A stretch of DNA of 64,000 nt from an uncultured Granulosicoccaceae bacterium (GCA_964390335.1 CAYMHU010000001.1:158225-222224); one strand, 5' to 3'. Positions 2,387 through 52,035 are shown, counted from the stretch's first letter. Program-made: numbers and translations. Notes: generated by a model from the sequence alone, not told the origin.

Positions 2387-3190
2387 TCAGTTGGGCGTTT
2401 CAGCGCTTTTTTGACGTGCTACAAGGGCTCGATTCAAAGCTCTGGACGCAGCAACTAACCCAAAGGTTCCGGTAACACCACTCACCGAACCATAGCCGTG
2501 ATCGCAATCGAGCGACGCGCCAGGCACACCCGGTTTGGTATGGGTAACGCCGCCGGCACCATCGGGATACTTGGGTTGTTCTGTGGAGAACACACACTCC
2601 ACACCAAAACGTTTTTTAGGGTACCGGCTAAAGCCGTAATCGGTGCGCAAACGTTTACGGACTTTGGATGCCAGCGCATCATTCCAGGTTTGGGACAAAT
2701 CGCATACCTGAATACACAAGGGGTCAATTCGACCACCAGCACCACCCGTGGTGATGATATCGATGCGTTGCCGCTTACAAAACGAGATCATAGCGGCTTT
2801 AAACCGAATGCTGTCTATTGCGTCGATGACCACGTCAAATTGCTGATCAAGATACTTCGATAAGTTACTCTCCGCCAGAAAGTCATCCACCGCGTGCACA
2901 TCACACTCGGGATTAATTTGCTTAACGCGATCTGCCATGAGCGACACTTTTGAGTCACCGATTGTCGTACTCATGGCATGAATTTGTCGATTGATATTGC
3001 CAACAGTCACATCGTCGTGATCTATTATTGTTATATGGCCCACGCCGGTTCTTGCCAACGACTCAACGGCCCAGGAACCGACGCCACCAATACCTACGAC
3101 GCAAAATCGGCATTGCGCCAGCAATTCATACGTTTCGCGGCCGAAAACTCGCGGCAGCGCAGCAAACGCAGTATCAGGAGAAAATGTCAT
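2387..3190 (-). CDS. tcdA: tRNA threonylcarbamoyladenosine dehydratase (ThiF/E1-like)
   Basis: VVGIGGVGSWAVESLARTGVG, DHDDV..NINRQ, IITTGGAGGRIDP, FGVECVFSTEQ, GTFG. Confidence 0.9.
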   Translation of the reverse strand: MTFSPDTAFAALPRVFGRETYELLAQCRFCVVGIGGVGSWAVESLARTGVGHITIIDHDDVTVGNINRQIHAMSTTIGDSKVSLMADRVKQINPECDVHAVDDFLAESNLSKYLDQQFDVVIDAIDSIRFKAAMISFCKRQRIDIITTGGAGGRIDPLCIQVCDLSQTWNDALASKVRKRLRTDYGFSRYPKKRFGVECVFSTEQPKYPDGAGGVTHTKPGVPGASLDCDHGYGSVSGVTGTFGLVAASRALNRALVARQKSAETPN

Positions 3191-3483
3191 CTGTCGAACT
3201 CAATAATGCGGAGACCTGGGTGGTGTATATCTTACGATGTCGCGACGATTCACTGTACACCGGAATTACCACCGATCTGCCACGCCGGCTACTAGAGCAC
3301 AATTCATCCAAACGCGGCGCGAGCTACACCCGTGGACGTCGGCCGGTCGATGTGGTTTTTAGCCAAAGTGCGCCTGATCGCTCAACTGCCAGCAAGCTTG
3401 AAGCCCGCATCAAGTCACTTAACAGGGCTGCTAAAGAGTCACTAATTGAGGAGGGTTTTGCTGGGCCCCAAAGCCAACCATGA
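3184..3483 (+). CDS. GIY-YIG nuclease family protein (UPF0213/YhbQ-like)
   Basis: WVVYILRCRDDSLYTGITTDLPRRLLEHN..GASYTRGRRPV..ASKLEARIK; start uncertain. Confidence 0.85.
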   Translation: MSSVELNNAETWVVYILRCRDDSLYTGITTDLPRRLLEHNSSKRGASYTRGRRPVDVVFSQSAPDRSTASKLEARIKSLNRAAKESLIEEGFAGPQSQP

Positions 3484-3774
3484 GTCAATTATGAGCCAAC
3501 TTTTGGACCATTCTTGAGCCCCTCGAAACCCGAGCCGACGCTGGAATAAGTTGCCAATTCGCGGTACAATCCACCCTGCTAAAGATTGCAGAAAACTCAC
3601 CCACCTGGTGCAGCCGGAATCCCGGTTCAGTGCAATCTGCCAGACCACCTTCTTAGTGTAAGTAGGTTACAGGCGTAGTAATCGTTCGAGACACGCTACA
3701 TCAGATCGCTCAGACCTGATCGGCATACTGCCGGTAGTCCGCTTTTGCGGTTTGAAAATGATAGAGGCCTATAA

Positions 3775-4041
3775 GTGAAAAAAATGTTTGTTGGTGGCTT
3801 GCCGCTAGAATCTACAGAAGAAACCGTAACGCAACTATTTGGCGAATATGGCACGGTGCGCTCGATTAAATTAGCCGCTGACGTATTCAGTGGAAAATGC
3901 AAAGGATTTGGTTTTGTGGAAATGGAAGGCCACGAAGCACGGGCTGCCATTGCCGGACTCAACGGCAAAATTGTTGGCGATAAGTCGCTCAAAGTTCAAT
4001 TTGAAGAACCCCGTAAAGGTAAAGGCGGACGCCGACGATAA
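3775..4041 (+). CDS. Single-RRM RNA-binding protein
   Basis: RNP2 MFVGGLP, RNP1 KGFGFVEM, basic Gly/Arg tail; GTG start. Confidence 0.9.
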   Translation: MKKMFVGGLPLESTEETVTQLFGEYGTVRSIKLAADVFSGKCKGFGFVEMEGHEARAAIAGLNGKIVGDKSLKVQFEEPRKGKGGRRR

Positions 4042-4047
4042 ATACCC

Positions 4048-4078
4048 GCGGCCGGAGACCAACTTGGCTTCCGGCTGC
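4048..4078 (+). other. GC-rich hairpin directly after RRM gene (possible terminator or stabiliser)
   Basis: GCGGCCGGA..CCAA-C-TTGG..TCCGGCTGC; no adjacent U-tract. Confidence 0.35.
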
Positions 4079-4291
4079 AACCTCGATATTGCGTTTTTTG
4101 TACTCAAAATCGCTCATCAACATCTATAATTAAACTCAAGGCGGGTCAGAGTCAATCACCTGGTCCCACAGCTCAAAAGGCAACAATGTACGGCGATATG
4201 CACCGCGATTTGTTCGATAGTTTTCTCGGTTTCTATATCGGAAGACATATCGGCGGCGGCGCTGCAAAGACATTGGCAGTGATATCCGCCA

Positions 4292-4993
4292 GTGAATGAG
4301 CCGACGCAATCAAAACTAACCAGCCGAAGCATTCGCAGCTTTGTTATTCGTAAAGGTCGATTGACCAAAGCGCAAGCGGCAGCAATGCAGACGCTGCTGC
4401 CCAAATACGGTGTTAGTTTCGATGCGCAATCACCGATAGTTGCAACGAAGTTGTTTGGACGGGTTGCGCCTTTGTGGGTGGAAATCGGATTTGGCAATGG
4501 TGATGCGCTTATCGACATGGCGCTACGGTACCCCGACACCAACTTTATCGGAATTGAAGTGCATGAGCCCGGCGTGGGTCAGGCACTGTCTGCAATTGCA
4601 GCCAATCAATTGACCAACGTGCGTGTCATGCAGCACGATGCGGTAGAGATCTTGCAGCAAATGTTTACCGCAAACTCGATTGACAGAGTGCTACTGTTTT
4701 TCCCTGACCCATGGCGGAAAAAGCGGCACTTCAAGCGACGTATAGTGCAAAAGGACTTTGTCGATCTTGTTGCTTCACGTTTAGTAACAGGCGGCGTATT
4801 CCATTGCGCAAGTGATTGGCAAGACTACGCAGAATGGATGTTGGAACGGCTGGAGGCTTGCGAGATGCTGGCAAATCAAGCCGCTCCGGGTGAGTATTCA
4901 CCCAGACCTGAATGGCGCACTAATACTCGTTTTGAACAACGGGGTGAACGCCTGGGTCACAGTGTTTTTGATTTGTTATACACACGGCGCTAG
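4292..4993 (+). CDS. trmB: tRNA (guanine-N7)-methyltransferase
   Basis: IRSFVIRKGRLT, VEIGFGNG, FIGIEVH, FFPDPWRKKRHFKRR, TRFEQRG. Confidence 0.95.
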   Translation: MNEPTQSKLTSRSIRSFVIRKGRLTKAQAAAMQTLLPKYGVSFDAQSPIVATKLFGRVAPLWVEIGFGNGDALIDMALRYPDTNFIGIEVHEPGVGQALSAIAANQLTNVRVMQHDAVEILQQMFTANSIDRVLLFFPDPWRKKRHFKRRIVQKDFVDLVASRLVTGGVFHCASDWQDYAEWMLERLEACEMLANQAAPGEYSPRPEWRTNTRFEQRGERLGHSVFDLLYTRR

Positions 4994-5044: not shown

Positions 5045-6901
5045 ATGATCGACGCGATTACGCTTAACTTAGAAATGATTGTAGTGCTGGTACTACTGGC
5101 CTTTACGATCTTCTTGTTCGCGTTTGAAATAGTACGGGTTGATGTTGCCGCCATTATCATCATGGTTTTACTGGGACTATCAACCATGGTCCCGGCTATC
5201 ACCCCACTGCTCTCCCAACAGGAACTGTTTTCCGGTTTTTCGAGTAACGCGGTTATCTCTGTCATTGCCGTTATGATCATTGGCGCCGGTCTCGATAAAA
5301 CCGGCTTGATGGGTAAGCTTGCGCAGCTCATATTAAATAAAGGCGGCAAAACCGAAAGCCGAATTATTCCGTTGGTATCCGGTACCGTGGCGTTTATCTC
5401 GAGCTTTATGCAGAACATTGGTGCTGCGGCGCTTTTCCTACCGGTTGTTAATAGAATCTCCGCACGAACCGATATTCCCATGTCGCGCCTACTCATGCCG
5501 ATGGGCTTTTGCGCCATTCTGGGTGGTACAGCCACCATGATTGGCTCTAGCCCACTTATCTTGTTAAACGACTTAATCATTTCGTCGAATAAAACCCTGG
5601 CACCCGATCAGCAAATGGACACGTTTGGACTGTTTGCTGTAACACCAATCGGTATTGCGCTGGTTATAACTGGCATTGTGTATTTCGTATTGGCCGGTCG
5701 GTTTGTATTGCCACAGGTTCGGGTAACTGACCAAAACCGCACGAGTCGCACCACGGATTACTTCGAAAGTTTATATGGCATTGGTGGTGAACTTCTGGAA
5801 GCACGCGTTACCGACGATAGCCCTATGGTTGGTATGAGCATCCGCCAAATAGAACAAAATTACCCAAACTGCCCTTTGATATTGGCTTTATACAGTGGTG
5901 ATGTTGTCAAGATTCCACCCGACCGCGAAGAAGTTGTGTGGGTAGGCACACACGTGGGTGTCATGGGTGATCAAAAACACCTTGATGCATTTTGCGAAGA
6001 ACACAAATGGGAACTGCGCGGCGAACCCGATCGATTCGCGGATGTGCTTAATCCGCAACACAGTGGCATCGCCGAATTAGTAATTCCGCCAGGCTCCAGT
6101 CTGGTTGGAAAAGAAATTAAAGACGTCAAACCACGGCGCAACTTCGGTGCGAACATCTTGCAAATTTATCGTACCGATCAGGTTATTAAGCGCGAATTCG
6201 CAGATCAAGTGCTGCAACCGGGCGACACGCTTGTTGTACACGCCAGTTGGAAAGATCTGAAAAAACTCTCACGCAACCGCGATTTTGTTATAGCTACCGA
6301 AGTGAAGTACGAAGATTTACGTACCAATAAAGTTCGTGAAGCCGCCATCTTTTTCTGTTTAGCACTGGCGCTGTTTCTAATTACCGATAATTTATCGGTG
6401 TCGTTACTAACCGGTGCCATGGGCATGGTTTTATCTGGTGTACTAACCATTGATGAAGCCTACGACGCCGTAAGCTGGCAAACGGTATTCTTACTGGCCT
6501 CATTAATTCCGTTAGGTATTGCAGTGGACCAGTCGGGCACCGCTGCGTGGATCGCACAGGAAATTCTAGTCTTGGTGGGCGATGTACCCAATTGGGTTTT
6601 GCAGGTGGTGGTTGCAGGCCTTGCTACGTTCTTCACACTGGTGATGTCGAACATCGGTGCTACCGTACTACTGGTGCCTTTAGCCGTTAACATTGCCGTG
6701 GCCGTTGGTGCCGACCCAGCCGTATTCGCATTAACGGTTGCCATTTCCACATCTAATTCTTTTTTAATTCCTACGCATCAAGTTAACGCGCTTATCATGG
6801 GTCCAGGTGGTTACCAAGTAGCGGACTTTATGCGCGCAGGAGGCATCATGACTATCTTGTTTATGGTGGTTAGCCTTGTCATGCTGAATTTGGTGGTTTA
6901 A
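5045..6901 (+). CDS. SLC13/DASS family permease with TrkA-C (RCK-C) domains
   Basis: Multiple TM segments, SSFMQNIGAAA and LGGTATMIGSSPLI motifs, central soluble RCK-C region, MSNIGAT and PTHQVNALIMGPGGY. Confidence 0.85.
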   Translation: MIDAITLNLEMIVVLVLLAFTIFLFAFEIVRVDVAAIIIMVLLGLSTMVPAITPLLSQQELFSGFSSNAVISVIAVMIIGAGLDKTGLMGKLAQLILNKGGKTESRIIPLVSGTVAFISSFMQNIGAAALFLPVVNRISARTDIPMSRLLMPMGFCAILGGTATMIGSSPLILLNDLIISSNKTLAPDQQMDTFGLFAVTPIGIALVITGIVYFVLAGRFVLPQVRVTDQNRTSRTTDYFESLYGIGGELLEARVTDDSPMVGMSIRQIEQNYPNCPLILALYSGDVVKIPPDREEVVWVGTHVGVMGDQKHLDAFCEEHKWELRGEPDRFADVLNPQHSGIAELVIPPGSSLVGKEIKDVKPRRNFGANILQIYRTDQVIKREFADQVLQPGDTLVVHASWKDLKKLSRNRDFVIATEVKYEDLRTNKVREAAIFFCLALALFLITDNLSVSLLTGAMGMVLSGVLTIDEAYDAVSWQTVFLLASLIPLGIAVDQSGTAAWIAQEILVLVGDVPNWVLQVVVAGLATFFTLVMSNIGATVLLVPLAVNIAVAVGADPAVFALTVAISTSNSFLIPTHQVNALIMGPGGYQVADFMRAGGIMTILFMVVSLVMLNLVV

Positions 6902-6939
6902 CCACTCGATCGAAAACACAAATAGATTTGGAGGTCAGT

Positions 6940-7326
6940 ATGTCAGATGATAACCAGTCAAATGATAAAAACCCGTTTCCGGATACTCAGTTCAAAGCGC
7001 ATAAATTTTCAAGGGCCGATATGAGCGGTGCAGATTTTGATGGCGTTAACTTGAGCAATGCAACGTTTTGGACTGTGCTTAAAAATGGCAAGTTCACTGA
7101 CAGTAATTTAGAAGCCTGTGAGTTCAACGATGTGAATCTGTCAAACAGTGTCTATGAGAACATAAACCTAAGTAACACAACATTCAACAATATCAATATG
7201 GTTGATGTGCGTTTCAGCAACTTGAACCTGGCCAATGCAGAGATTACTGAAGCTAACTTACAAGGCATGAAAATTAACGGTGTTCTGGTTAGCGACCTGT
7301 TCGAGGCATACGAAAAACAACAATAG
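6940..7326 (+). CDS. Pentapeptide-repeat protein
   Basis: ADMSG/ADFDG/VNLSN/INLSN/LNLAN repeats; GGAGG RBS at 6930-6934. Confidence 0.8.
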   Translation: MSDDNQSNDKNPFPDTQFKAHKFSRADMSGADFDGVNLSNATFWTVLKNGKFTDSNLEACEFNDVNLSNSVYENINLSNTTFNNINMVDVRFSNLNLANAEITEANLQGMKINGVLVSDLFEAYEKQQ

Positions 7327-7367
7327 CTGTATTTGAAATTTCGCCTATGCGCTAAATAGGAAACATT

Positions 7368-8057
7368 GTGTTGGACGTTGATTGGTTAGCAGAAGCAATA
7401 TCGAACAACGCAGCATGGTGCGATGCCATAGCATCTTCCCACAACGTTCCCACCAGCTGGAATGAGTCGTATTGGATGAGTAAACATCCGATGCCGCGTT
7501 TCTACCCCAATATCATCACACTCAAAAGTGATACCGCAATCGATAATCAAATCGACATCATTAAACCTCAACTTCCATCAGGCTGGGGCATTAAAGACAG
7601 CTTTGCAGAGTTAGATTTACATAGCAATGGGTTCTCACCAGCATTCGATGCACATTGGTATTGCCGAGTGCCAACAAATGGCATCATTGATAATTTTAAG
7701 CGGCAACACCATGTTCATACTGTAAAGACACAGCTTGAACTGAATCGCTGGGCGAGCGCATGGGGCGACGGCACTGATATTTTTAATGCTGCGTTATTGG
7801 AGAAGCAGTGCGTTGAACTGCTGTACATTGAGCACCACAACAATATAGTGGCTGGCTTGGCCATAAACCTCAGCGGTCATTCAGTCGGTATTTCCAATGC
7901 GTTTGGTTCGCCAAATGAATTGCTGAGCAGCGTTGCGTCAGTCATTGAAAAAAATCCAGACAAGGGCCTCGTTGGTTATGGTGATCAAACAGAGATGGCG
8001 CTGCTCAGTAAAATTGGATTCCGGAACATCGGTGATATGCGAGTGTGGGAAAGATGA
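7368..8057 (+). CDS. Hypothetical protein
   Basis: 229-aa ORF, GTG start, stop overlaps next ATG (ATGA). Confidence 0.6.
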   Translation: MLDVDWLAEAISNNAAWCDAIASSHNVPTSWNESYWMSKHPMPRFYPNIITLKSDTAIDNQIDIIKPQLPSGWGIKDSFAELDLHSNGFSPAFDAHWYCRVPTNGIIDNFKRQHHVHTVKTQLELNRWASAWGDGTDIFNAALLEKQCVELLYIEHHNNIVAGLAINLSGHSVGISNAFGSPNELLSSVASVIEKNPDKGLVGYGDQTEMALLSKIGFRNIGDMRVWER

Positions 8058-9008
8058 AAACTGACGTATCGGTAGCAGTTATTGGCGGTGGCATCGTTGG
8101 AGCATCATTGCTTTATTGGTTGGCCAAGTCGGGTGGGACAGACACAGTATTGCTGGAACGTCGCGAACTCACCTCCGGCTCAACCTGGCATGCAGCCGGT
8201 AACACCACGTATTTTGGCCCTTTTCCAAAAATGACATCGCTGTTTGCAGGATCAATACGCACCTACTTACAGGCCGAACAAGAGTCTGGGCAGTCGGTCG
8301 GTTTTCACCAAACTGGCAGTCTGCGATTAGCGGCGACTGCCAGAGAATTAGAGCTGTTCCACACCTATGCTTCGCGCTACCAGGATCTTGGGATTCCGTA
8401 TCATATTCGCACCCCGGAAGAAGTGGCTGAGTTGCACCCGTTCGTTAACATTAAAGACATCCATGGTGCTGCCCATACGCCAACAGATGGCCATGTTGAT
8501 CCGACCGGTGCGACCACTGCGTTGGCAAAGGCAGCGCAAAGCTTGGGGGCTGAAATTAAACGTCATTGTCCTGTAAACGCAATCATCAAAAGTGGTGACA
8601 CATGGCTATTGGAGATGCCAGACGGGAGATTGACTGCGCAACATGTTGTCGTAGCCACCTCGTTCTGGGCTCGCGAAATGCTCGCACCACTGGGTCTGAA
8701 CGTGCCGGTTTATGCAACACAACATCATGAAATTATTACAGAGAACCTGTCTGAAATTGCCAAGCTCGACACCGAGTTACCGGCAATGCGTGATAGTTGG
8801 GTGTCGTGTAACGTTCGACAAGAGCAGTATTGGCACGGGTGGCGGATCAGCCGAGTTCCTTGCCAAATGGATTACTACTGGAAGCCCACCTCCTGAGCTT
8901 GATGCCATGCATGCTGATCGATTTGGTAACGCAATGGAGAGGGACGCAGCGTTGGATGCGATTAGGCAGGTCTATGCTCGCGGTTATCAATTGCCCGAAT
9001 CAATCTAG
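8054..9008 (+). pseudogene. FAD-dependent oxidoreductase (dimethylglycine/sarcosine dehydrogenase N-domain-like), internally deleted and frameshifted near 8826
   Basis: VAVIGGGIVG, ELTSGSTWHAAG, HTPTDGHVDP up to VRQEQ; C-terminal SIGTGGGSAEFLAKWITTG..DRF continues in another frame; the GPI/TPDG region is absent. Confidence 0.75.
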
Positions 9009-9030
9009 AGCAATGGATACTGTTAGTTAT

Positions 9031-9528
9031 TTATTTGATGCTTAGGCAATACACACTGGCCGTTACACCAACACTGCTATCATTGGGTGGCAACAAAGTT
9101 GGGCATCTATAGAAAGTTGAACCAGCCACTGATGTAACGGTGAATCCACCTGACACATCACACGCACCACCTGTCGCTACTGAATCGGCAGGGCAAAAAG
9201 CGGTACAGCCAAATCTCGTATTTGGCCCTCCCATACAGCTTTGCGTTACCAAGGTAATCGGTGAGTTGGATTCGGTGTTAACTTCCCCTATTACTAATTC
9301 GGAGCTTTCAGCGTTCCACATGGTGTCAAAAACAACCAACTGATAAACTCCAGGCTCTACATCGCAAGGTGATGTGGCAACGGATGCAGAATCACAAACC
9401 GTTTGGTAGTTATCTGTAACCGATTGAAGCTGTGCCAATGCTACATCCGGCCCGGAAGGTAAGTTGTATTCGACAGCATTGGCAACTCCGAAAACAAACA
9501 ATAGAGGAAATATGGCTTTGAAATGCAT
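9031..9528 (-). CDS. Secreted Cys-rich hypothetical protein
   Basis: Signal peptide (ANA cleavage), 165 aa, CPADSVATGGAC...YCL C-terminal module. Confidence 0.6.
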   Translation of the reverse strand: MHFKAIFPLLFVFGVANAVEYNLPSGPDVALAQLQSVTDNYQTVCDSASVATSPCDVEPGVYQLVVFDTMWNAESSELVIGEVNTESNSPITLVTQSCMGGPNTRFGCTAFCPADSVATGGACDVSGGFTVTSVAGSTFYRCPTLLPPNDSSVGVTASVYCLSIK

Positions 9529-9631
9529 TATCGACTCCGTATCAACAAACTGAACAGAAAATAAAATACGCCATCTGGTTTGTCAAGCTATACCTCCCTT
9601 AGCCTTAGCCCTAGACCGCGAAAACGAATTG

Positions 9632-9660
9632 GGAACGCGTACTGTGTGCCAAACCTAGAA
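9632..9660 (+). repeat. Degenerate copy of ~24-bp cassette-boundary repeat (R0)
   Basis: GGAAC-GCGTACT-GTGTGCCA-AACCTAGAA, resembling R3; 31 bp past HNH stop. Confidence 0.35.
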
Positions 9661-9691
9661 AATTCAATAAAGCTTCACAGATTAACCTGAA

Positions 9692-11383
9692 TTAAACACA
9701 ATAAATTGCAGGCGATGACTCTTTGCATTGCCAAAGTGTTGAGTGGCAACTTGGGTCTACATTTGTAGAGTCCATCTGTGTTGATTCAATGAGTGTGGAG
9801 TCGATACCAGTATAGTCAACTCGTGTAGAGTCGCTTCGTGTAGAGTCGTCACTTAGTTTTTGTGCTGGCTTCAAATCAACCACCGCTGCATCCGTAATAT
9901 CTTGTCCGTTTTTATTAATTATACGAAATCGAAATCGTTCCGGTGATAGTTGCCGTATCGCGTTAAACGACTCCCGATCATTGCGCAATGATTCTTCAAA
10001 GTCGAATTGATTAAGATCATGAAAGTGTAGTTGTTGGAAAAACTGCTTATGCACACCGTCTTTATCCTGTGCAACTGCTTCGATTTTATAACCACCTTCA
10101 TGCACCAGCGTGTGATGATAAGAACACAGACAGACACCATTCTCAACGGACGTTGAACCACCGTCGGCCCAGTGCTGCATGTGATGGATATGCAAATGAC
10201 GCGAATGATCACAACCCGGCCAAACACACTGTTGATCACGTTCTTTGATGGCGCGAGCCATGGCGCTTGGCCAGATGCGGGATTTACGTCCGATATCGAT
10301 GGGCTCACCGCTCTGTGTTTTATTGACTGAGATACAGCAATCACAGGCAATGCGCCTGGCCGTTTCCCGGCCAATAGGGCCTGCGCCAATAATTATGGGG
10401 CGTTTTGCAGGGGTTACTGGTTCGGTATTGTTGTTTGAATTGTTGGTGATTGAGCCATTATTAATCGGAGCAAGCTCGCTTTCATCAACAGTAACACTCA
10501 CTTGATATCGATCAGCCGTGGCGATGGCTTTACCGGCACCTTGCAGGCTGGACTCTGCCATCAATACTGCCGCGTCTGCTCTGCGTTGTGACATGGCGTT
10601 GTCGGCCGTACCCAACTCACCCAGACTATGTTCAACGCTATTAAGAAAAGCTTGCGCAAGTTCAGGTGGTAAGACGAGTTGGATTTGCGTGCTGCCGTTA
10701 CTTGCCTCGCGCCACGTCAACGAACGCGAATCCCATTGCCTCATAGCACGGGTGTTTTCCGCGTCGCCATTGTCGTCTTCACACCACCGATAACCATCGC
10801 ACAAGCGCTTAACCTCTGATACTGATGCATCCAACGCGGCGTGACACAAGGTTTTTTCGTTATCACTATCAGCCACACGGGTGATCAAACGCACTTTCGA
10901 CCAAGACAACTTACCAACCCTAAACAAGGCCTGTAGCATGGGTAGAGATTGAAGTCGGCGACCCACGCGCAAATACTCCCAGCTCAATTTAGTGCTAATA
11001 CCGATTTCAGCGTTCATCCACGCAGCGCAATGGCTCGCGCCACTTTGTTTCCAGGCTTGTTGGTCATCAAACCGGACCAGCAGCTCTAGTAGATCTGCAT
11101 GTTGAGAGCTTATTTCTTGTGAGAGGAGTTTTAAGCGTTGCCGGATGGTTTGAGCATCTTGCGGTAATGCGTTGCGATCGATGCCTTCGGTATACTCTTT
11201 TTGTTCAGCACTTTTAGTGCGTTCAGCCTTACCTTCAATGCAGGCCATCGCTAAACGAACACGTTGACCAAACTGCTCACGGTCAGCGGCATCGAATGAG
11301 TTCATGCCCAGCTCAAAAGAGGCTGCGGATTTTTTATCGTTATTATTTTTGTCGTTATTACCAGGGTGGTTTGGTTTATCCAT
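9692..11383 (-). CDS. DUF222 (13E12-repeat family) HNH endonuclease
   Basis: LVRFDDQQAW..SGASHCAAWM, GKLSWSKVRLITRVA, RDQQCVWPGC..HIHHMQHWADGGSTSVENGVCLCSYHHTLVH; GGGAG RBS. Confidence 0.85.
   Translation of the reverse strand: MDKPNHPGNNDKNNNDKKSAASFELGMNSFDAADREQFGQRVRLAMACIEGKAERTKSAEQKEYTEGIDRNALPQDAQTIRQRLKLLSQEISSQHADLLELLVRFDDQQAWKQSGASHCAAWMNAEIGISTKLSWEYLRVGRRLQSLPMLQALFRVGKLSWSKVRLITRVADSDNEKTLCHAALDASVSEVKRLCDGYRWCEDDNGDAENTRAMRQWDSRSLTWREASNGSTQIQLVLPPELAQAFLNSVEHSLGELGTADNAMSQRRADAAVLMAESSLQGAGKAIATADRYQVSVTVDESELAPINNGSITNNSNNNTEPVTPAKRPIIIGAGPIGRETARRIACDCCISVNKTQSGEPIDIGRKSRIWPSAMARAIKERDQQCVWPGCDHSRHLHIHHMQHWADGGSTSVENGVCLCSYHHTLVHEGGYKIEAVAQDKDGVHKQFFQQLHFHDLNQFDFEESLRNDRESFNAIRQLSPERFRFRIINKNGQDITDAAVVDLKPAQKLSDDSTRSDSTRVDYTGIDSTLIESTQMDSTNVDPSCHSTLWQCKESSPAIYCV
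9762..9851. repeat. Six tandem 15-bp units encoding (D/E)STxx pentapeptides in HNH C-terminus
   Basis: TTTGTAGAGTCCATC/TGTGTTGATTCAATG/AGTGTGGAGTCGATA/CCAGTATAGTCAACT/CGTGTAGAGTCGCTT/CGTGTAGAGTCGTCA. Confidence 0.75.
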
Positions 11384-11445
11384 AAAACAGTTCTCCCTTG
11401 ACGTATTTCATCGTACCAGGAAAACCGCGCTCGCGCATCAACTAA

Positions 11446-11461
11446 CTGCATGTATATACAG
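11446..11461 (-). promoter_or_regulatory. LexA (SOS) box upstream of DUF222-HNH gene
   Basis: Minus strand CTGTATATACATGCAG matches CTG-N10-CAG with AT-rich core; 63 bp upstream of ATG. Confidence 0.7.
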
Positions 11462-11570
11462 TTTGCAACAAAAGCGATACTCGGATGGCTACTTCAGTAG
11501 CAGTATCGGCAGAGTTATTTTGGTGTTGTTTGTTGCTGATTGCAATCAGAAATTATATGTGGAAATTGTG

Positions 11571-11595
11571 TGACAGCTAAGTGCCCTCTGCCGAC
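11571..11595 (+). repeat. Cassette-boundary repeat R1
   Basis: T-GACAGCT-AAGTGCCC-TCTGCCGAC; 10 bp from DUF4375 stop. Confidence 0.55.
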
Positions 11596-11605
11596 GCTTG
11601 ATCTC

Positions 11606-12151
11606 TCACTGTCTGGATAACTTGCCTAGTAGGTGAGAAAGTATATTAGTTTTTCTACCAGGAAAAGAAATCTCGTCTCTGTTTAATTTTATAAATTCAA
11701 ACAAATTGTTCTCAATGCTTTCTGTGCTAAGCCTATAGAAATCTGCATCTAATTTATCTAATTGCTCATCTTGTTCTGTAGTGGCGTCAGCCGCGAGAGT
11801 TTGTATTTCAAGCTCGGTTGTTCTGCTCTTAACACCCAGAATCAACAAAGCATTTTCTAGTAGCGCAGCGGACTTCGGACAACCTATTTTCTTAAGCGAA
11901 TCAGATGCACCCTTTACATGGTATGGGGTATTAAAGCAAAAAGCATTAAAACCACCGTTGTTTACTTGACGTTCAAATGATTCGATAACAACGATTACCT
12001 TTTCGGTATCGGTCAGAGTGGGTTTTTGGTTCAATGCTTCATCAAATGCCAGCACAATTGAATCGACTCGATGTGTTGCACTCATTGCAATCAACTCGTC
12101 TACAGACTCACCACTGTATTTATCGAGGAATGGCAAATTGTCATTGTTCAT
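11606..12151 (-). CDS. DUF4375 (DMP19-like) domain protein
   Basis: FERQVNNGGFNAF..N....ASDSLKKIGC..A..L...L..LD..FY; GGAG RBS. Confidence 0.75.
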   Translation of the reverse strand: MNNDNLPFLDKYSGESVDELIAMSATHRVDSIVLAFDEALNQKPTLTDTEKVIVVIESFERQVNNGGFNAFCFNTPYHVKGASDSLKKIGCPKSAALLENALLILGVKSRTTELEIQTLAADATTEQDEQLDKLDADFYRLSTESIENNLFEFIKLNRDEISFPGRKTNILSHLLGKLSRQ

Positions 12152-12177
12152 CTTCTACTCCAATGAAGACTATTAAA

Positions 12178-12249
12178 GGTCAGCTTTTGGCCGGTTTCTG
12201 CCGGTTGGATAAAGTCTAATCGAACTAGTGCTTTGTGCCCGTTGCGGAC
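12178..12249 (+). repeat. Tandem pair of cassette-boundary repeats R2 (12178-12202) and R3 (12221-12249)
   Basis: G-GTCAGCT-TTTGGCCG-GTTTCTGCC and CGAAC-TAGTGCT-TTGTGCCC-GTTGCGGAC. Confidence 0.65.
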
Positions 12250-12263
12250 GGTCAGCCTGACGG

Positions 12264-13562
12264 CTATGGCGGAAAATCAACGAAATCACATGGAAAACCG
12301 ATTACCTCTTGGTACCCGCCAAAAGACTTTCTGAACTTTCTGAATTTGAATTCTCGCGAAAAGTACTCGGTGGTTTCTATTCCATTTTCTTGGTCAATGA
12401 AATCAGTTTCCTCGACAACCCTCCAATACGGGTCGTCAATTTCTTTAGTGATAGACGTTCTGGTTTGCGTTCGTCTCACACCATTAAAGCTCACCTCGAA
12501 ATACGTTCCAGCAACAGGGTCGCATACTGAGGTATCGTCAATTAATTTTCCTATTAAGTCGCTGCTTCTGTTCCCAGTAAATTGGTAGGTACCAAATGCG
12601 CCACCATCGGATTCTTCAACATACCTACGAGTGTATTCATCGACGAGTGTGACGGTGCTAGAAACATTTGTGGTGGCAGTATAATCACTTCCATCATAGG
12701 AATTTATAACACCTTCCCAGGACACAGAATTTTCTGAGTGTATTCGCGTACCAGAGGTATTTCTGTAATCTAAATTCGGTTTGAAATTATGCATGAGTAC
12801 TCCGTTACCGTCAGCATCAATATCGAGATTACCTGAAAGTGAATCTTGATTTGGATTATTTGGATGAGGCGCGAACGTTATAAAAAGTGGTCTTTCCTCT
12901 GTTAGATACGCTTCAAAATCCCAGGGAAATAAAACAGTAGTTGGAGTGTAGTCTTCTATCGGCAGCAATGAATCCTCATCAACAAAAGGGTCAGACCCTG
13001 CTATCAATTCGTCCAGATTATTTATCCCATCTTCATCAGCATCAAACAAATTACGGTCGAACTGATCTACACCAACAACAAACGTTTCTGCATCGTTATT
13101 GCCGCTTCTGTATTCCTGGTTTGAACGAGCTAATTCAATCCCACCCATGTTGTCATAGAAAGTCACAATGAGCGTCTGTACTGTGTTCTGGGGCAGATCC
13201 GCCGACGCTGACCAAAACTCATCACCAACCCATGTAGCAGAAAAGTAGAAGTCACCCCATTCCAATAGAACGCTCAGTTCGTTGGATTGGTACGCAGGCA
13301 CAGTGATCTCAAAAGAGACTTTGGTGGTGTTTTGTGTTTCTGACTCTTCTTCTGTTAAGGTCGGTGCGTCCTCAGCAGGGTTCAGCCCAGTGTCGGTTGA
13401 GCTCTCAGGATCATTTGTTTCAGTCGGAACATTGTCGTCGTTCGCGCCATTGAGGTTGCTCGGATCAGACGATGTGGACTCACTGGAGCTAGAACATCCA
13501 GAAAGGATGAAAACAAACAGGAGTAATACAACAAACCGATAGATGGATGTCTTGATAACCAT
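12264..13562 (-). CDS. Lipoprotein with low-complexity linker, beta-rich domains and TSP3-like Ca-binding motif
   Basis: Lipobox LSGC, S/T/E/N-rich linker, FDADEDGINNLDELIAGSDP. Confidence 0.7.
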   Translation of the reverse strand: MVIKTSIYRFVVLLLFVFILSGCSSSSESTSSDPSNLNGANDDNVPTETNDPESSTDTGLNPAEDAPTLTEEESETQNTTKVSFEITVPAYQSNELSVLLEWGDFYFSATWVGDEFWSASADLPQNTVQTLIVTFYDNMGGIELARSNQEYRSGNNDAETFVVGVDQFDRNLFDADEDGINNLDELIAGSDPFVDEDSLLPIEDYTPTTVLFPWDFEAYLTEERPLFITFAPHPNNPNQDSLSGNLDIDADGNGVLMHNFKPNLDYRNTSGTRIHSENSVSWEGVINSYDGSDYTATTNVSSTVTLVDEYTRRYVEESDGGAFGTYQFTGNRSSDLIGKLIDDTSVCDPVAGTYFEVSFNGVRRTQTRTSITKEIDDPYWRVVEETDFIDQENGIETTEYFSREFKFRKFRKSFGGYQEVIGFPCDFVDFPP

Positions 13563-13710
13563 GGTAATTTAACTATTGAGAAATTAATTTGCCCAGCACT
13601 AACGCATCGTATTGTACTTGATGCGCTGAACAGGCTTAACTAGGAAAATAAAACAATGGTGTCGGTATATTTACCATCCTTGGCAGCACTATGCGGTTAA
13701 TCAAATTGAA

Positions 13711-13740
13711 CGAACTTCCGCTATTGGCCGAAACCGGATC
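13711..13740 (+). repeat. Cassette-boundary repeat R4
   Basis: CGAAC-TTCCGCT-ATTGGCCG-AAACCGGATC; overlaps the RES gene stop codon (13739-13741). Confidence 0.65.
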
Positions 13741-14182
13741 ATCTTACCAGTCGCTTGTCGATCACCACATCAACAGGTTTTGAAATCTTGATCGTCTTAA
13801 AGTCTGGATGAAGTTGATTTATCAGTACATTACCCTCATAGGGTGATACTACCGATGGAACCCATAAAGCTACCGTTTTGCCATCATCGAACCACTTGTT
13901 ACCAACGGCACGACAGGCATCCTGGTCGTTGATATCTTTAGGTCTTTTCTCCAGCTGCTTACTCGAGTCGGGAATCGTCGCTACTACACACACCAATGTC
14001 GGTGGCAATGTGTTGCTTTGCCAATGAACCAGGTTTTCCAGTACGGCAAGTGAATAGCTAGACGCACCGTGAACAACTAACCTCCCGGGATCGACCCAAC
14101 GACTGCCCCATCGATAAGCACCTCCGCCATCAAAAGGAGGATACTGCTTGCTTACGATTCTGTAGACACGTTTACCCTTCAA
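13739..14182 (-). CDS. RES-domain toxin (RES-Xre type II TA)
   Basis: VYRI...DGGGA..GSRW..G...S.SLAVLE...LWVPSVVSP.E.NVLIN.LHPDF. Confidence 0.85.
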   Translation of the reverse strand: MKGKRVYRIVSKQYPPFDGGGAYRWGSRWVDPGRLVVHGASSYSLAVLENLVHWQSNTLPPTLVCVVATIPDSSKQLEKRPKDINDQDACRAVGNKWFDDGKTVALWVPSVVSPYEGNVLINQLHPDFKTIKISKPVDVVIDKRLVR

Positions 14183-14619
14183 GCTGGTAGGCCATGTAAT
14201 CCCCGTTCGATGACTTCCTCAACTGCCCTTCCACCTAATTCGGTCAATGCCGTTTCGAAAGGTGAGCGTCCGTCAAGCTCCGGATGTGAGCGCATCATGA
14301 ACCGAGTCGCCGCAGTAGGGTCTACAAATGCATCCAGAGCCATCGCATACAGTCGGGCAATTCGCTCAATAGTCTCACTGGTCTGAAGGTTGAATCGATC
14401 AACCCGGTTGTAGGTAGCACGCGGCACAATCCGAAAGCGTATGTCATTTGTTGAGGTCTCGGAGAAGTGTTCTCCAAACCCTTCAACAAGCGTGTCGAGC
14501 GCAGATTTTGGTAGTCCACTGGCGACGATGTTTTCTAAATCGCGCATTGTTTGGATTCTTTTGCCAAGACCCTTGGTACCGCCCAAGACATCAGATATAT
14601 TTTTTGCTGAAATGCTCAT
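14179..14619 (-). CDS. Xre/MbcA/ParS family antitoxin
   Basis: IVASGLP, IVPRATYNR, SETIERIARL, FMMRSHPELDGRSP, VEEVIERGLHG; 4-nt overlap with RES gene. Confidence 0.85.
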   Translation of the reverse strand: MSISAKNISDVLGGTKGLGKRIQTMRDLENIVASGLPKSALDTLVEGFGEHFSETSTNDIRFRIVPRATYNRVDRFNLQTSETIERIARLYAMALDAFVDPTAATRFMMRSHPELDGRSPFETALTELGGRAVEEVIERGLHGLPA

Positions 14620-14656
14620 ATGAGCATATTATGAGGCTCATTAAATCATTTTTCAA
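14612..14656 (-). promoter_or_regulatory. Sigma70 promoter and palindromic operator of Xre-RES operon
   Basis: TTGAAA-17bp-CATAAT, then 8 nt to ATG; perfect 16-bp palindrome ATGCTCATATGAGCAT (14612-14627) spanning the start codon. Confidence 0.65.
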
Positions 14657-14735
14657 TGCGCTCATAACAGGCGATTGAGTAAACGCCGACAGAATTAAGG
14701 CATAAACCCAACATCCATCGATATTTAACCTTTCA

Positions 14736-14858
14736 AATGACTGCTGTTGGCCAAAGGACTTGCTGGTCGTTGACCCAAATCAGCTTGTACATTGACCCGC
14801 TCTTTGGTGCCTAACGCGGTGTCAGAACGTACTAACTGTTCTTGGCGCTTTAACCCAC
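14736..14858 (+). repeat. Three degenerate cassette-boundary repeats R5-R7
   Basis: AAT-GACTGCT-GTTGGCCA-AAGGAC (14736); GACCCGCTCTTTGGTGCCTAACGCGGTGTC (14794); AACTGTT-CTTGGCGC-TTTAACC (14834, contains DUF6176 stop). Confidence 0.5.
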
Positions 14859-15044
14859 ACAATCAACTTTAGAAAATTCATCATCGATACTTTTTGGCGC
14901 AAAAGAGATAACGTGTTCCATATTAATCGGACGCCATTCAGTGTCTATACATTCAGTTCTTCAATTGGCCATCTCGCGCATCCACTCATTTGCACGTTGC
15001 TCCTTGCCTACTTTCACTCGAAAAATCGAGAAATCTGTGTTCAT
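14850..15044 (-). pseudogene. DUF6176-like small protein, central part deleted
   Basis: Manual translation: MNTDFSIFRVKVGKEQRANEWMREMAN* then, out of frame, ECIDTEWRPINMEHVISFAPK...; both ends resemble my recollection of DUF6176 termini. Confidence 0.5.
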
Positions 15045-15055
15045 AGTTTTCTCTT

Positions 15056-15083
15056 AATGACAGCTTATGGCCGAACGCGAGCC
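15056..15083 (+). repeat. Cassette-boundary repeat R8
   Basis: AAT-GACAGCT-TATGGCCG-AACGCGAGCC; 11 bp from the DUF6176 ATG and 56 bp from the metA stop. Confidence 0.6.
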
Positions 15084-15139
15084 TCATAGGTCATACAAAG
15101 TCGATATAGCAAGAGTTCAATCACCACAATTAGCAATCA

Positions 15140-16222
15140 TTATTTCAAGCCAACCCGCCCCCAACCAAGCGGATTGTTTATATCGATACCATCCATAAAC
15201 GGCAGCGCCCGATCAGCATTCGTCAACTGATACACCAAACCAATCCAGTTACCAACAATGGCTTCACCACTGTCATGCCAGGTGTTATGCAAAGTCGGTA
15301 AAACAAGTGCTTCTGGAAACGCAGGCACCGGCGTACCTTGCTGCTTTGCGGCTTTCACTTTGCCTTTGTATTCCTGCAAAATAGCCTTTGCGAATGAATT
15401 AAAATAGTACTTTGGCATTGGTGGGTATTCGTTTAGCTCGCCAAATGCGTATAAACCAATATCACGCTTGTACTCTTTCATTAAACTGATTCGATCGTAT
15501 TCCGGATGACCTTGAAAGAACACGGTTCTGAATCCGTCCGGGCTTACCGCCAGCTGCACACCGGCCTCTGTTCCCTGTGCCAATACGTGTAAACCTTTTG
15601 ATTGCATTTGCTCGGCAGTGACTTCATTAAAGCGCGATTGCGGCACTACAATGCGGGTATTCACATCATGGATTAAGGGATGATCGCGCAGCGTTACGTC
15701 AAATTCAAACACACCCCACCGTTTTTTATCCAGATGCTGGCGTTCTATTTCATAAGCACCCAACAGCACTGCATGGCTCGATAAACAAGAACACAAAGTT
15801 GAAGTGACATTTTCATGTGCCCAATGGTATAAATCCATCAACGGGCTCCAAAATACCTCTTTGGATAAATCGGCTTCGATGACGTTTGCACCCGTAATGA
15901 TCAGTGCATCCAAACCATGCTCTTTAATACTGGATAATGGTTCGTAGTAACGCGCTATGTGTTCGCTCGCGACTTCACCACGTGGAATTTCATCTAAGGT
16001 AAAGGGATGAATATGAAACTGTGCTATTGGGTTACTGGAGCCCACTAAACGAAAAAATTGTCGCTCCGTTGCAGCCAGTGCGGCATCGGGCATCATATTC
16101 AGCAAGCCAACATGCAAATCGCGGATATCTTGCTTTTGCGCGCGCTCTTGGGTGAGCACAGTGTGCCCTTCCTGACGCAGCCGCTCGAATGTGGGTAAAT
16201 TGCTGGTTTGAACCAATGGCAT
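15140..16222 (-). CDS. metA: Homoserine O-succinyl/acetyltransferase (MetA family)
   Basis: LHVGLLNMMPDAALAATERQF, DALIITGAN, STLCSCL, FFQGHPEYD; acyl specificity not assignable by eye. Confidence 0.9.
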   Translation of the reverse strand: MPLVQTSNLPTFERLRQEGHTVLTQERAQKQDIRDLHVGLLNMMPDAALAATERQFFRLVGSSNPIAQFHIHPFTLDEIPRGEVASEHIARYYEPLSSIKEHGLDALIITGANVIEADLSKEVFWSPLMDLYHWAHENVTSTLCSCLSSHAVLLGAYEIERQHLDKKRWGVFEFDVTLRDHPLIHDVNTRIVVPQSRFNEVTAEQMQSKGLHVLAQGTEAGVQLAVSPDGFRTVFFQGHPEYDRISLMKEYKRDIGLYAFGELNEYPPMPKYYFNSFAKAILQEYKGKVKAAKQQGTPVPAFPEALVLPTLHNTWHDSGEAIVGNWIGLVYQLTNADRALPFMDGIDINNPLGWGRVGLK

Positions 16223-16234
16223 GGAAATGACAGC

Positions 16235-17074
16235 CTATGCGTCTAGCGCGTTACTGATTAAATCAAGAAAATCGTCTGCTGAGCTAACGTTAAACGCATC
16301 CCGAGCCTTTATTGTATAGCCATATTCATCGGCTATCGCTTTGTAACGTGGCACTCGGGCACTGAACAGCATTGGGAATACCCAACGCACGTAATCGTCC
16401 GGTTCTATCTGCGCAACATATTCTATATTGCGTTGTTGCATGTACAGCGCCAAATGCTCATCAAGAAACGATTCACGATAGTACAACGGCTTAGGGTCTT
16501 TATAAGCACGCTCTATCAGAAACTTTTCGTCATCCTTGTCGGCTTCAATATAGATCATCACCGTATGGTCGGCGATCTCTCGAATAACATCCTTATCGTC
16601 GATCTCACAAAAGCTGCCGCTGGCATCGTTTAGAAAATTATCGTAACCATATACATCCTGGGCTTTATTGATAAATTCGGGCACGTCATGTAGGGCCGCA
16701 ATTTCTGCATCTAAATGTAAAGCTTGCCGGTATTTAAATTCATCAAGTGCCAATCCATGTAAATCCGGATTACCCAGTTTGCCCAAAAAGGTTGATAACG
16801 GTTTTAAGTTATCAACGGTAATATTGTTGGCGATATAAATGGAATCACTGAGCAGCAGGTCACGTAAAAACGGCACCTGCATTGCCTGTTTTTTTATGTT
16901 GTCGAGTATGGCTTCGTCGATATAGCGAGTACCTATACGGTAGTCCACCGAATAGTGAAACCAATTATCATCGCGCAAAAAGTTGGCTAGGCGTGTTTTG
17001 CCAACACCCGACATGCCCAACAAGGTAATGCATTTCCGGGGTGAGTCCAGAAATGCTTGCTTCGAAATTCGCAT
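16235..17074 (-). CDS. Uncharacterised P-loop ATPase/kinase
   Basis: Walker A ITLLGMSGVGKT; HYSVDYRIGTRY; FLNDASGSFCE. Confidence 0.75.
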   Translation of the reverse strand: MRISKQAFLDSPRKCITLLGMSGVGKTRLANFLRDDNWFHYSVDYRIGTRYIDEAILDNIKKQAMQVPFLRDLLLSDSIYIANNITVDNLKPLSTFLGKLGNPDLHGLALDEFKYRQALHLDAEIAALHDVPEFINKAQDVYGYDNFLNDASGSFCEIDDKDVIREIADHTVMIYIEADKDDEKFLIERAYKDPKPLYYRESFLDEHLALYMQQRNIEYVAQIEPDDYVRWVFPMLFSARVPRYKAIADEYGYTIKARDAFNVSSADDFLDLISNALDA

Positions 17075-51679: not shown

Positions 51680-52035
51680 GCTAGCCCTCCTCGGCCACTA
51701 TTACTGAATGCGCATACATAAAGTGTGATTCTGACTAAAAACACGACTGCTTCCAAGTAAAAACCGCCAACCGGTAATAATACCGTCGAAATTTGGCCAA
51801 TCTGGCTCTGCCTGCCCGGCCGAGACACTTGCCACTGCCCGATGGCGACAAACGTACATAGTACGCTAACTGACACCGATTCCGAGATTACCCGACCGCA
51901 GCCTACTCAAAATGACACGTAAAATAGTTGGTAAGCGCCAAGAATTTGCGGTTTTTTGCGTGTATTTCCCCTACCATATTGCCTTCAGACCACAGTGTTA
52001 CACTTCTGATCGACTTAGACTTCGGACTGCATTTC

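Follow-up and report, generated by a model that had tools for sequence, protein, structure and literature searches.

The accessory genes downstream of metA are really separated by a family of 25-bp sites, and the likeness among these sites is not a matter of chance. In the orientation of the genes, the consensus of this roughly dyad-symmetric site of ~25 bp reads GnCnGnnnnnGGCmmwwAGCtGnCA, and in the complete arrangement a gene is followed by a junction of ~70 bp which consists of two sites ~47 bp apart. An integron-like organisation is present, with co-oriented genes that are each followed by a conserved site filling the gap, and with other cargo at other loci. The sites may well be double-stranded att-type sites used for module exchange by a recombinase encoded elsewhere, and this is the reading that we tentatively prefer.

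The DNA analysed here, in the following called the window, is a stretch of 64,000 nucleotides. It contains an accessory insert of ~8.2 kb (6902..15139) between the convergent core genes CitMHS (5045-6901, plus strand) and metA (15140-16222, minus strand). As the preliminary description of this DNA had suggested looking for, relatives with an empty site downstream of metA were found: in L057 and L058 metA adjoins CitMHS, and in L056 four other genes lie there. The array occupies an insertion hotspot of accessory DNA that is empty in two relatives, and its GC content is 0.44 versus 0.475 for the whole window. All the enclosed genes are on the minus strand, as had been described. The gene next to metA is a DUF6176 remnant (14850..15044), a pseudogene with an in-frame stop after codon 27 in which 35 of the 109 profile positions match and only the N-terminal third of the family can be recognised. 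It is followed by a toxin-antitoxin module (13739..14619) of an Xre-family antitoxin (14179-14619) and a RES toxin (13739-14182), with its own sigma-70-like promoter (14656-14628), then by a predicted lipoprotein of 432 aa (12264..13562; lipobox-type N-terminus, faint TSP3 repeat, GC 43%) and by a DMP19/DUF4375-family protein of 181 aa (11606..12151; GC 39%), upstream of which no promoter-like match was found. The array ends in a gene for a DUF222 and HNH endonuclease protein of 563 aa (9692..11383). The insert further holds a pentapeptide-repeat gene, a 229-aa ORF, a DAO pseudogene and the gene of a 165-aa secreted Cys-rich protein (sec165). In agreement with the preliminary description, no recombinase was detected in the 64-kb window, and no transposase either.

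The motif sequences listed at the outset are indeed present at the positions given for them, and five of the six main copies could be upheld as sites (15058-15082, 13715-13739, 12225-12249, 12178-12202 and 11571-11595, all on the minus strand). The first of these, GCTCGCGTTCGGCCATAAGCTGTCA (15058..15082), is a single site scoring 22.8 bits, or 16.6 bits with a position weight matrix (PWM) trained outside the window, and is separated by 58 nt from the preceding metA stop and by 13 nt from the ATG of the DUF6176 remnant that follows. The last, GTCGGCAGAGGGCACTTAGCTGTCA (11571..11595), lies 11 nt past the DMP19 stop and at the same time forms the left border of the DUF222-HNH unit. The sixth copy, CAAGTCCTTTGGCCAACAGCAGTCA (14738..14762, minus strand), is weak and doubtful, as it ranks 337th in the leave-one-out search and is missed by the outside-trained PWM. 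The weaker copies proposed at 9637, 14794 and 14834 score as background. Consequently, the idea that every gap holds a copy does not hold, since the gaps from the HNH gene to sec165 and from DUF6176 to Xre are left with no solid copy. The proposed placing of stop codons in or near the repeats is correct for RES, the lipoprotein gene and DMP19, which end 0-15 nt from a site, and fails for metA (58 nt) and for DUF6176; the latter is degraded, with its in-frame stop after 27 codons, so that a stop 'inside the repeat' has no meaning there.

Several searches describe how specific the motif is. The pattern GCTNWKKGCC has seven matches on both strands of the 64-kb window, six of which are the originally described copies, all read on the plus strand and all intergenic. 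With leave-one-out PWMs over 128,000 positions, four copies rank directly behind the training copies and the copy at 13716 takes 8th place (ranks 6-8 overall). A PWM trained on nine sites from other loci returned 11571, 12225, 15058, 12178 and 13715 as the top five of the window, a test that is partly circular because those nine sites were picked for their likeness to the motif. An HMM derived solely from two junctions of another locus of this lineage (L105) matches the window at 12180-12239 with E = 1.3e-7, and the reverse cross-locus search gave E = 3e-4 and 0.028, the best two matches in 2.6 Mb. When the k-mers of the 1.2 kb of intergenic DNA were tested without bias, the significance was only modest, with 1 of 100 shuffles at the strictest setting and 0.06-0.5 at the other settings. 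It is extremely unlikely that the sites are operators of a local DNA-binding regulator, or a chance likeness enlarged by selection by eye. The dyad symmetry would fit an operator, and the k-mer test is only weakly significant; against this stand the strong cross-locus statistics, the position of the sites past stop codons and 6-28 nt ahead of start codons rather than at promoters, and their coincidence with the homology borders of mobile units. Furthermore, Xre probably has its operator in another palindrome (ATGAGC..GCTCAT, 14620-14680).

The copies at 12226 and 12179, and the copy at 13716 plus its downstream flank, each belong to a conserved two-site junction of ~70 nt. Between the lipoprotein gene and DMP19, the junction (12180..12249, minus strand) is the one detected by the HMM from L105; it is composed of site A (12225-12249) and site B (12178-12202) and takes up nearly all of the 112-nt gap. 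Between RES and the lipoprotein gene (13674..13739, minus strand), the strong site 13715-13739 overlaps the RES stop and is followed by a degenerate second half; nhmmer gives E = 2.7e-10 for this copy, which was itself part of the model. Junctions occupy the whole gap from the stop codon to the next ribosome-binding site, both in the window (12152-12263) and in L105 (751-825 and 1120-1202). In the latter locus, the genes set apart in this way are a topology-modulation-like P-loop gene, one for a membrane protein of 97 aa and an ORF of 69 aa, and all three are unrelated to the window genes.

The DUF222-HNH gene differs from the other members of the array. It is multicopy in this genome, where it shows raised depth, contig breaks and loose ends at 9720 and 11415, and across Granulosicoccaceae. 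Homology among the units of the window, L105 and L059 begins at the site, with an upstream identity of 0.54-0.59 that equals the shuffled level, and the same motif stands at the equivalent place in L061 and L100. Their right end lies a few nt past the stop codon, and no site is found downstream of the HNH gene, which makes the unit unlike a two-ended cassette. A LexA-box-like CTGTATATACATGCAG (11446..11461, minus strand) is located 78 nt upstream of the start codon, and 18 of 34 loci of the family have a box CTGK-N8-RCAG at a distance of 47-98 nt ahead of the ATG. The preliminary description had counted this nuclease among the cassette cargo; instead, the DUF222-HNH gene makes up a multicopy selfish unit, and the site forms the left border of this unit itself. 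As a separate candidate, an RNA-guided element of the IscB/HEARO type was rejected: only the HNH motif matches IscB (22.9 bits, cutoff 175), Rfam gives no match and the upstream spacer is variable rather than conserved.

With such a unit at hand, the site could be the target of the DUF222-HNH nuclease, so that an SOS-controlled unit cuts or docks there and inserts to the right of it, and the remaining copies of the array would be additional targets or past ones. In five of the six loci of the lineage, 140-210 nt separate the site from the HNH start downstream of it, the homology between units starts exactly at the site, and all arrays seen so far end in an HNH gene. The dyad symmetry would suit a dimeric nuclease and the LexA box suggests activity induced by damage. 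We nevertheless regard this explanation as improbable. The sixth locus (L102), with small accessory genes upstream, is a counter-example with no site, and in other Granulosicoccaceae the HNH loci carry the LexA box and no such site. The right half of the site (TTAGCTGyCA) travels with the unit and may therefore simply be its end. Lastly, the insertion of another element at the same site and the two-site junctions between unrelated genes would be left unexplained.

This other element was found in L137-L139 and consists of a recombinase gene (int) and an IS91-family Y2 transposase gene. The transposase, beside the recombinase gene, scores 413.7 bits, above the NCBIfam cutoff, and the recombinase is a Xer-like tyrosine recombinase of 294 aa; a co-occurring tyrosine recombinase, as had been proposed to look for, thus exists outside the window. 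In four of four copies, the element starts with ACTAAACCGC 3 nt (once 3+6 nt) past the left half and centre of a site. These flanking left half-sites rank 1st, 2nd and 7th within their own loci and differ even between copies with identical int genes. Two different selfish units begin at defined points inside the site, the HNH unit near position 13/14 and the IS near 19/20 by their inferred borders; as the borders differ, no single crossover point is defined. Three further arrangements look recombinant. In L100, the site is composed of the left half of the first and the right half of the second site of L061, with 65 nt missing. In the same locus, the int gene breaks off at codon 177, where the right half of a site is joined to it. 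In L137, a second int copy is followed not by the IS91 transposase gene but by a DUF1877 gene with a site behind it. In the population studied here the candidate integrase was found only as a truncated copy (L100/L140), and the intact copies come from other samples (BBAY).

The proximity to an IS91-family element raises the alternative that the sites are leftovers of rolling-circle capture, that is, terIS-type end-like sequences, with gene blocks taken up by one-ended transposition as proposed for ISCR. One-ended capture is established for the IS91 family, and the transposase adjoins the very recombinase gene whose left flank is the site. This alternative is quite improbable, as the left half of the site varies between IS copies with identical genes and is therefore flank rather than IS end. 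Additionally, tblastn with the Y2 transposase and int of the lineage detected no IS91 gene or remnant in the window, the GTTC/CTTG target typical of IS91 is absent at the border, and random read-through would not leave a single-gene spacing with conserved 70-nt junctions.

Another explanation, possible and yet rather doubtful, is that the sites are selfish or structural repeats like REP or MITE sequences, which would spread or be maintained by themselves in non-coding DNA and be preferred as landing sites by the IS and the HNH unit, and that the genes were never cassettes. The sites are extragenic and quasi-palindromic, measure ~25 nt, often lie just past stops and are sometimes paired ~47 nt apart. 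IS elements are known to target REP sequences, and site-targeted IS insertion is what the four copies show. The array is also stable in the population. However, when eight junction strands were folded as DNA, neither strand folded better than shuffled sequence (z -0.5 to +1.9). Core intergenic regions carry no copies in roughly 140 kb of sampled genome, the solid sites are co-directed with their neighbouring genes in 14 of 14 cases, and the junctions fill the entire gap instead of being set inside an older spacer. The two half-sites are alike whether they are compared as direct or as inverted repeats; a terminal inverted repeat with target-site duplication is not evident, and the orientation is always that of the genes. 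Finally, no RAYT gene is found in the 64-kb window of this incomplete genome.

In the DNA of the lineage sampled, the sites are confined to accessory arrays. No further copies were found outside arrays in about 157 kb of DNA of this lineage, in the HNH loci of Granulosicoccaceae or in syntenic loci of relatives, and pattern scans of public metagenomes and genomes returned no further members of the family; the collections scanned evidently lack this lineage. This sample amounts to 14 solid sites in about 157 kb, and since the loci were reached via the HNH and int genes, the association of the sites with them is partly a product of the search route.

Returning to the preferred reading of att-type sites, gene modules would be joined, exchanged or deleted there by a trans-acting site-specific recombinase, for which the 294-aa Xer-like enzyme carried by the IS91-family element of the same lineage is the prime candidate. 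Breakage and joining would then occur at the site, the tyrosine recombinase rather than the HNH protein would act on it, and single modules would move. The window would then hold a decaying array, inserted downstream of metA, in the order metA, site, DUF6176 remnant, (weak site), Xre-RES, junction, lipoprotein gene, junction, DMP19, site and DUF222-HNH unit. A single 4,909-bp contig covers 11374-16282 unbroken in all four metagenome runs that hold the sequence, so that mobility is inferred and not observed. Ten assemblies, obtained from several samples, agree in the gene order, and modules that had been gained, lost or turned into circles were not observed. The originally proposed cassette capture in trans is borne out in part, as regards the accessory hotspot and the sites bounding unrelated genes and mobile units elsewhere.

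A broader proposal, which we consider unlikely on present evidence, is that Granulosicoccaceae-related marine bacteria possess an undescribed cassette platform in which double-stranded dyad 25-bp sites and 70-bp junctions replace the folded attC, with either the IS91-borne Xer-like recombinase or the SOS-induced DUF222-HNH nuclease at the array end as the enzyme. If true, this would be the first proposed role for the widespread, functionless DUF222-HNH (REP13E12-type) family and for IS91-associated integrases.

In comparison to known systems, the DUF222-HNH unit described here shares with the DUF222-HNH genes of mycobacteria (REP13E12-type repeats) a multicopy gene family for DUF222 plus an HNH nuclease that is scattered in the genome as a repeated unit, and differs in the dyad-site left border, the conserved LexA box and the position at the end of small accessory arrays, a combination of which a literature search found no description. 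The element of L137-L139 is of the IS91/ISCR type with an upstream tyrosine-recombinase ORF, whereas the window has none; we know of no such element that targets a defined site of 25 bp for its insertion or is associated with cassette-like arrays. As in REP/BIME sequences and their targeting IS, short extragenic imperfect palindromes follow genes, sometimes in pairs, and an IS lands precisely inside, but here the stem-loop is not stable, the copy number in the sampled genome is very low, the sites are strictly co-oriented with the genes and copies occur only in accessory arrays. The link to GTCCGCT..GCGGAC hairpins that the preliminary description had drawn finds no support, and neither does that to GInt/GMT islands; the associated recombinase has no more than a faint match to the GmtY model.

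Likenesses also exist to two cassette systems. Similar to integrons and CALIN, the array contains co-oriented, mostly promoterless single genes or toxin-antitoxin pairs, i.e. cassette-typical cargo, each followed by a conserved 60-70-nt gap-filling element, and the site family is lineage-specific as in chromosomal integrons. Since intI is under LexA control, the SOS box beside the nuclease gene at the array end offers a loose parallel. Unlike in integrons, there is no IntI: the site-associated recombinase does not reach the IntI cutoffs, and its match to the IntI model falls into two pieces that skip the IntI-specific segment. The motif is not attC, as had been stated: the gaps contain no RYYYAAC/GTTRRRY core pair 40-130 nt apart, whichever strand is read, and there is no single-strand hairpin; what is conserved is the sequence and not a structure. 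Rfam has no match across 8800-15300, and no attI or Pc was identified. In the pdif/Xer modules of Acinetobacter plasmids and in IMEX, small modules, often toxin-antitoxin pairs, are flanked by short quasi-palindromic sites and served by a Xer-type recombinase in trans; small modules, quasi-palindromic borders and a Xer-like recombinase linked to the site are found here as well. In contrast to pdif, neither the 28-bp XerC-6-XerD (11-6-11) consensus nor an ATAA-N6-TTAT core is present in the site, whose own consensus is unrelated to the dif-like one (and no dif-like YATAA-N6-TTATS occurs in 8800-15300), the solid sites are all on one strand instead of alternating, as far as a near-palindromic site allows a firm statement, the location is chromosomal, and the candidate recombinase is IS-borne instead of host xerC/xerD. 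Overall, the system works like an integron or like Xer-dependent pdif modules and is a member of neither.

All genes between 9031 and 17074 lie on the minus strand, as the preliminary description had reported for the enclosed genes. Pfam/NCBIfam assignments were obtained for metA (15140-16222), an Xre-type antitoxin (14179-14619), a RES toxin (13739-14182), a 432-aa lipoprotein (12264-13562), a DMP19/DUF4375 protein (11606-12151), a 563-aa DUF222 + HNH protein (9692-11383) and a secreted Cys-rich protein of 165 aa (9031-9528). Between metA and the antitoxin gene lies a DUF6176 remnant, also on the minus strand (about 14850-15044), with 35 of 109 profile positions matched and an in-frame stop after 27 codons. 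Immediately ahead of the Xre antitoxin gene, palindromes of the ATGAGC..GCTCAT type at 14620-14680 overlap with a sigma-70-like promoter. These probably serve as the RES-Xre operator and differ from the repeated site.

The six main copies of the repeated site that had been described were all recovered at their positions. Matches to GCTNWKKGCC number seven on both strands of the window, six of them being these copies, which also obtained PWM scores of 20-28 bits as compared to 10 bits for the next best window match. When the PWM was applied in leave-one-out mode to 128,000 positions, four copies ranked directly behind the five training copies, the copy at 13716 came 8th and the copy at 14739 only 337th. 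The ‘weaker copies’ at 9637, 14794 and 14834 scored as background. Five of the nine copies originally proposed are consequently solid, the one at 14739 is doubtful and three are unsupported. Extra sites placed by eye, both at 9637 and past the end of the 165-aa gene, were likewise dropped, as the A-site PWM gave no support. No copies were found elsewhere in the window, as a repeat of the genome-wide type would have them, and alignment of 40 nt on either side of the six copies revealed no general similarity past the core of about 25 nt. An extended repeat was thus rejected, since the six copies share this core and the 70-nt junction is present in two gaps only. When only the 1.2 kb of intergenic DNA was considered, an unbiased word test reached no more than modest significance. 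The explanation that the sites are an operator or arose by chance is hardly credible.

Regarding the nature of the sites, the earlier idea of hairpins had to be abandoned because neither of their strands folds. Their non-attC character was borne out by the absence of attC cores; dif cores were also absent from the sites, and no Rfam family matches them. Terminator and promoter identities were rejected. For a sigma-54 promoter, the GG-to-GC spacing, judged from sequence, is 5-6 nt and not 10. An IscB/HEARO-type element was considered and rejected as well.

Other loci of the lineage were reached via HNH paralogues and int genes, and the association seen is therefore partly a product of this sampling; contig L145 contains no upstream sequence. 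A search with a single HNH protein returned Acidimicrobiales only, so that an alignment was required. In the window and at four further HNH loci (L059, L061, L100/L140 and L105), the HNH start is preceded by a site at a distance of 140-210 nt. Homology among the window, L105 and L059 covers the site and continues to the HNH start codon, and upstream of the site identity falls to 0.54-0.59, the level of shuffled sequence. The DUF222-HNH unit terminates a few bases past the stop codon.

In L105, which stems from a different metagenome, three small, unrelated genes lie ahead of the HNH gene, and both gaps between them are filled by elements of about 70 nt homologous to window 12180-12249 and 13674-13739. 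This homology held in two non-circular tests: a model built from L105 alone matches the window at E = 1.3e-7, and one derived solely from the window has the two L105 copies as its best matches in 2.6 Mb. From 15 aligned sites, 14 of them solid, the consensus GnCnGnnnnnGGCmmwwAGCtGnCA was derived, which is symmetric about GG|CC. Control loci of about 1 Mb held no sites at comparable scores and positions, HNH loci in other Granulosicoccaceae lacked them too, and a metagenome pattern scan gave 31 matches, all judged chance. The sequence GCAACAGGCAGAAACCGGCCARAARCGGAC lies in plasmid gaps without annotation in Pseudomonas / Azotobacter (L143 and L144, each at about 3001-3029) and matches the site B region of the window at 26 of 29 nt; with E = 1 in plasmid blastn, these 29-nt matches were treated as chance.

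The position upstream of HNH genes could also mean that the site is the target of the HNH nuclease. Considering the HNH locus L102, which has no recognisable site upstream, and the elements between other small genes in L105, we hold this to be improbable. At L102 (900-4100), small accessory genes (DUF4325, PIN/VapB, a HicB-like gene and GFA) stand before the HNH paralogue, and in general HNH genes appear to be located in hotspots of accessory genes. In 18 of 34 Granulosicoccaceae DUF222-HNH loci, a LexA-box-like CTGK-N8-RCAG precedes the start codon by 47-98 nt, most commonly by about 78 nt; these loci include the window (11446-11461), L059, L061, L100, L102, L105 and loci in the range L065-L099. 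This suggests that the whole multicopy DUF222-HNH family may be under SOS control.

No integrase or transposase was found across all 64 kb, in agreement with the preliminary description. A co-occurring tyrosine recombinase is present at other site-bearing loci. At L137-L139, intact copies of the gene for this 294-aa recombinase precede an IS91-family Y2 transposase gene. The first 177 codons of the recombinase gene make up the ORF that comes immediately before the site in L100. The recombinase is Xer-like, scores under every family cutoff and is without the IntI-specific segment. All four copies of the int + IS91 element start with ACTAAACCGC, three bases past the left half and centre of a site, a 6-nt duplication being present in one case. 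The left halves before these copies differ even beside identical int genes and rank 1st, 2nd and 7th within their loci, which indicates that the element inserts into pre-existing sites.

Such insertion is also what the main rival explanation would predict, namely a REP- or MITE-like repeat merely targeted by mobile elements, which we regard as less likely than module exchange at the sites. Three rearrangements have the appearance of having arisen by recombination at sites. The L100 site equals a fusion of two successive L061 sites, taking its first half from one and its second from the other, and 65 nt are missing. Also in L100, the int gene is joined to the right half of a site. In L137, a second copy of the tyrosine recombinase gene (3146-4666, minus strand; 91% identical) retains roughly 100 nt from the 5' region of the transposase gene; in place of the IS91 transposase gene itself, a DUF1877 gene and then a site come next. 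A genome scan for the IS left end gave four matches, all unrelated. The notion of IS91 capture debris is highly doubtful.

The metA protein was matched exactly on 19 metagenome contigs of one seawater project, with identical gene order on all. Relatives at 73-75% metA identity fall in a Granulosicoccaceae-like lineage and share the flank glnA-glyQS-gmhB-plsC-tatD-Zn peptidase-p279-metA; species-representative genomes reach no more than 61% metA identity, and their synteny is limited to the p279-metA pair. An empty site downstream of metA was found in two relatives (L057 and L058), where metA abuts a convergent CitMHS transporter gene, and in L056 four unrelated genes lie between the two. As CitMHS occupies 5045-6901 of the window, 6902-15139 is an insert of about 8.2 kb. 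GC content is 0.44 in the array part versus 0.475 in the window. Inside the insert lies a DAO (FAD-dependent oxidoreductase) pseudogene (8045-9008), in which homologue residues of about 238-331 are absent and the frame is shifted; truncation by the island was rejected in favour of a stand-alone pseudogene with an internal deletion. Elsewhere in the window, a shorter glutamine-synthetase-like gene (336 aa; 26151-27161) lies near full-length glnA (23508-24920) with a Ser/Thr kinase gene in between, and a 221-aa protein (51928-52593) has a bacterial, toxin-like EndoU nuclease domain, its adjoining ORFs being without family match.

In all four metagenome runs holding the sequence, a single contig of 4,909 bp covers 11374-16282 unbroken, and neither array variation nor a direct sign of module movement was seen in them. 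Contig breaks, raised depth and loose ends are confined to the HNH gene (reads at 9720, 9759-9857 and 11415), which is thus multicopy; a variant skipping 97 nt (9759 to 9857) in its repeat-rich 3' part was seen in all four runs. In the gap that separates the 165-aa gene from the HNH gene, a 6-nt indel of the GCTAAG repeat unit at 9597 is fixed differently in X3/X4 and X1/X2, the assemblies differing by 6 and 12 nt. About 20 dense substitutions at roughly half depth, mostly 3 nt apart, were found at 16283-16403 in the conserved 279-aa gene beside metA, of which two haplotypes seem to coexist in every run.

Altogether, our leading, still tentative reading takes the sites to be double-stranded and att-type, places at which gene modules would be joined, exchanged or deleted by an enzyme acting in trans. 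The first candidate for this enzyme would be the Xer-like recombinase borne by the IS91-family element, and the window would represent an old array in partial decay. On this reading, the arrangement would be one of site-bounded gene cassettes. Integrons serve as the model of single-gene stockpiling and shuffling in bacteria, and to our knowledge all of them depend on IntI and folded attC sites. If true, a second, unrelated site type doing the job of integrons would mean that cassette arrays arose more than once and that such arrays escape standard tools such as IntegronFinder. Testable roles would follow for DUF222-HNH nucleases and IS91-attached tyrosine recombinases, two common gene families for which we know of no function; no literature description was found tying either to such sites. 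Even the least exciting reading leaves a clear case of two different selfish elements landing at one short site. Compared to known systems, the sites fail the structural test for REP, and the array, while failing the defining tests of both integrons and pdif modules, resembles these two in the way it works.
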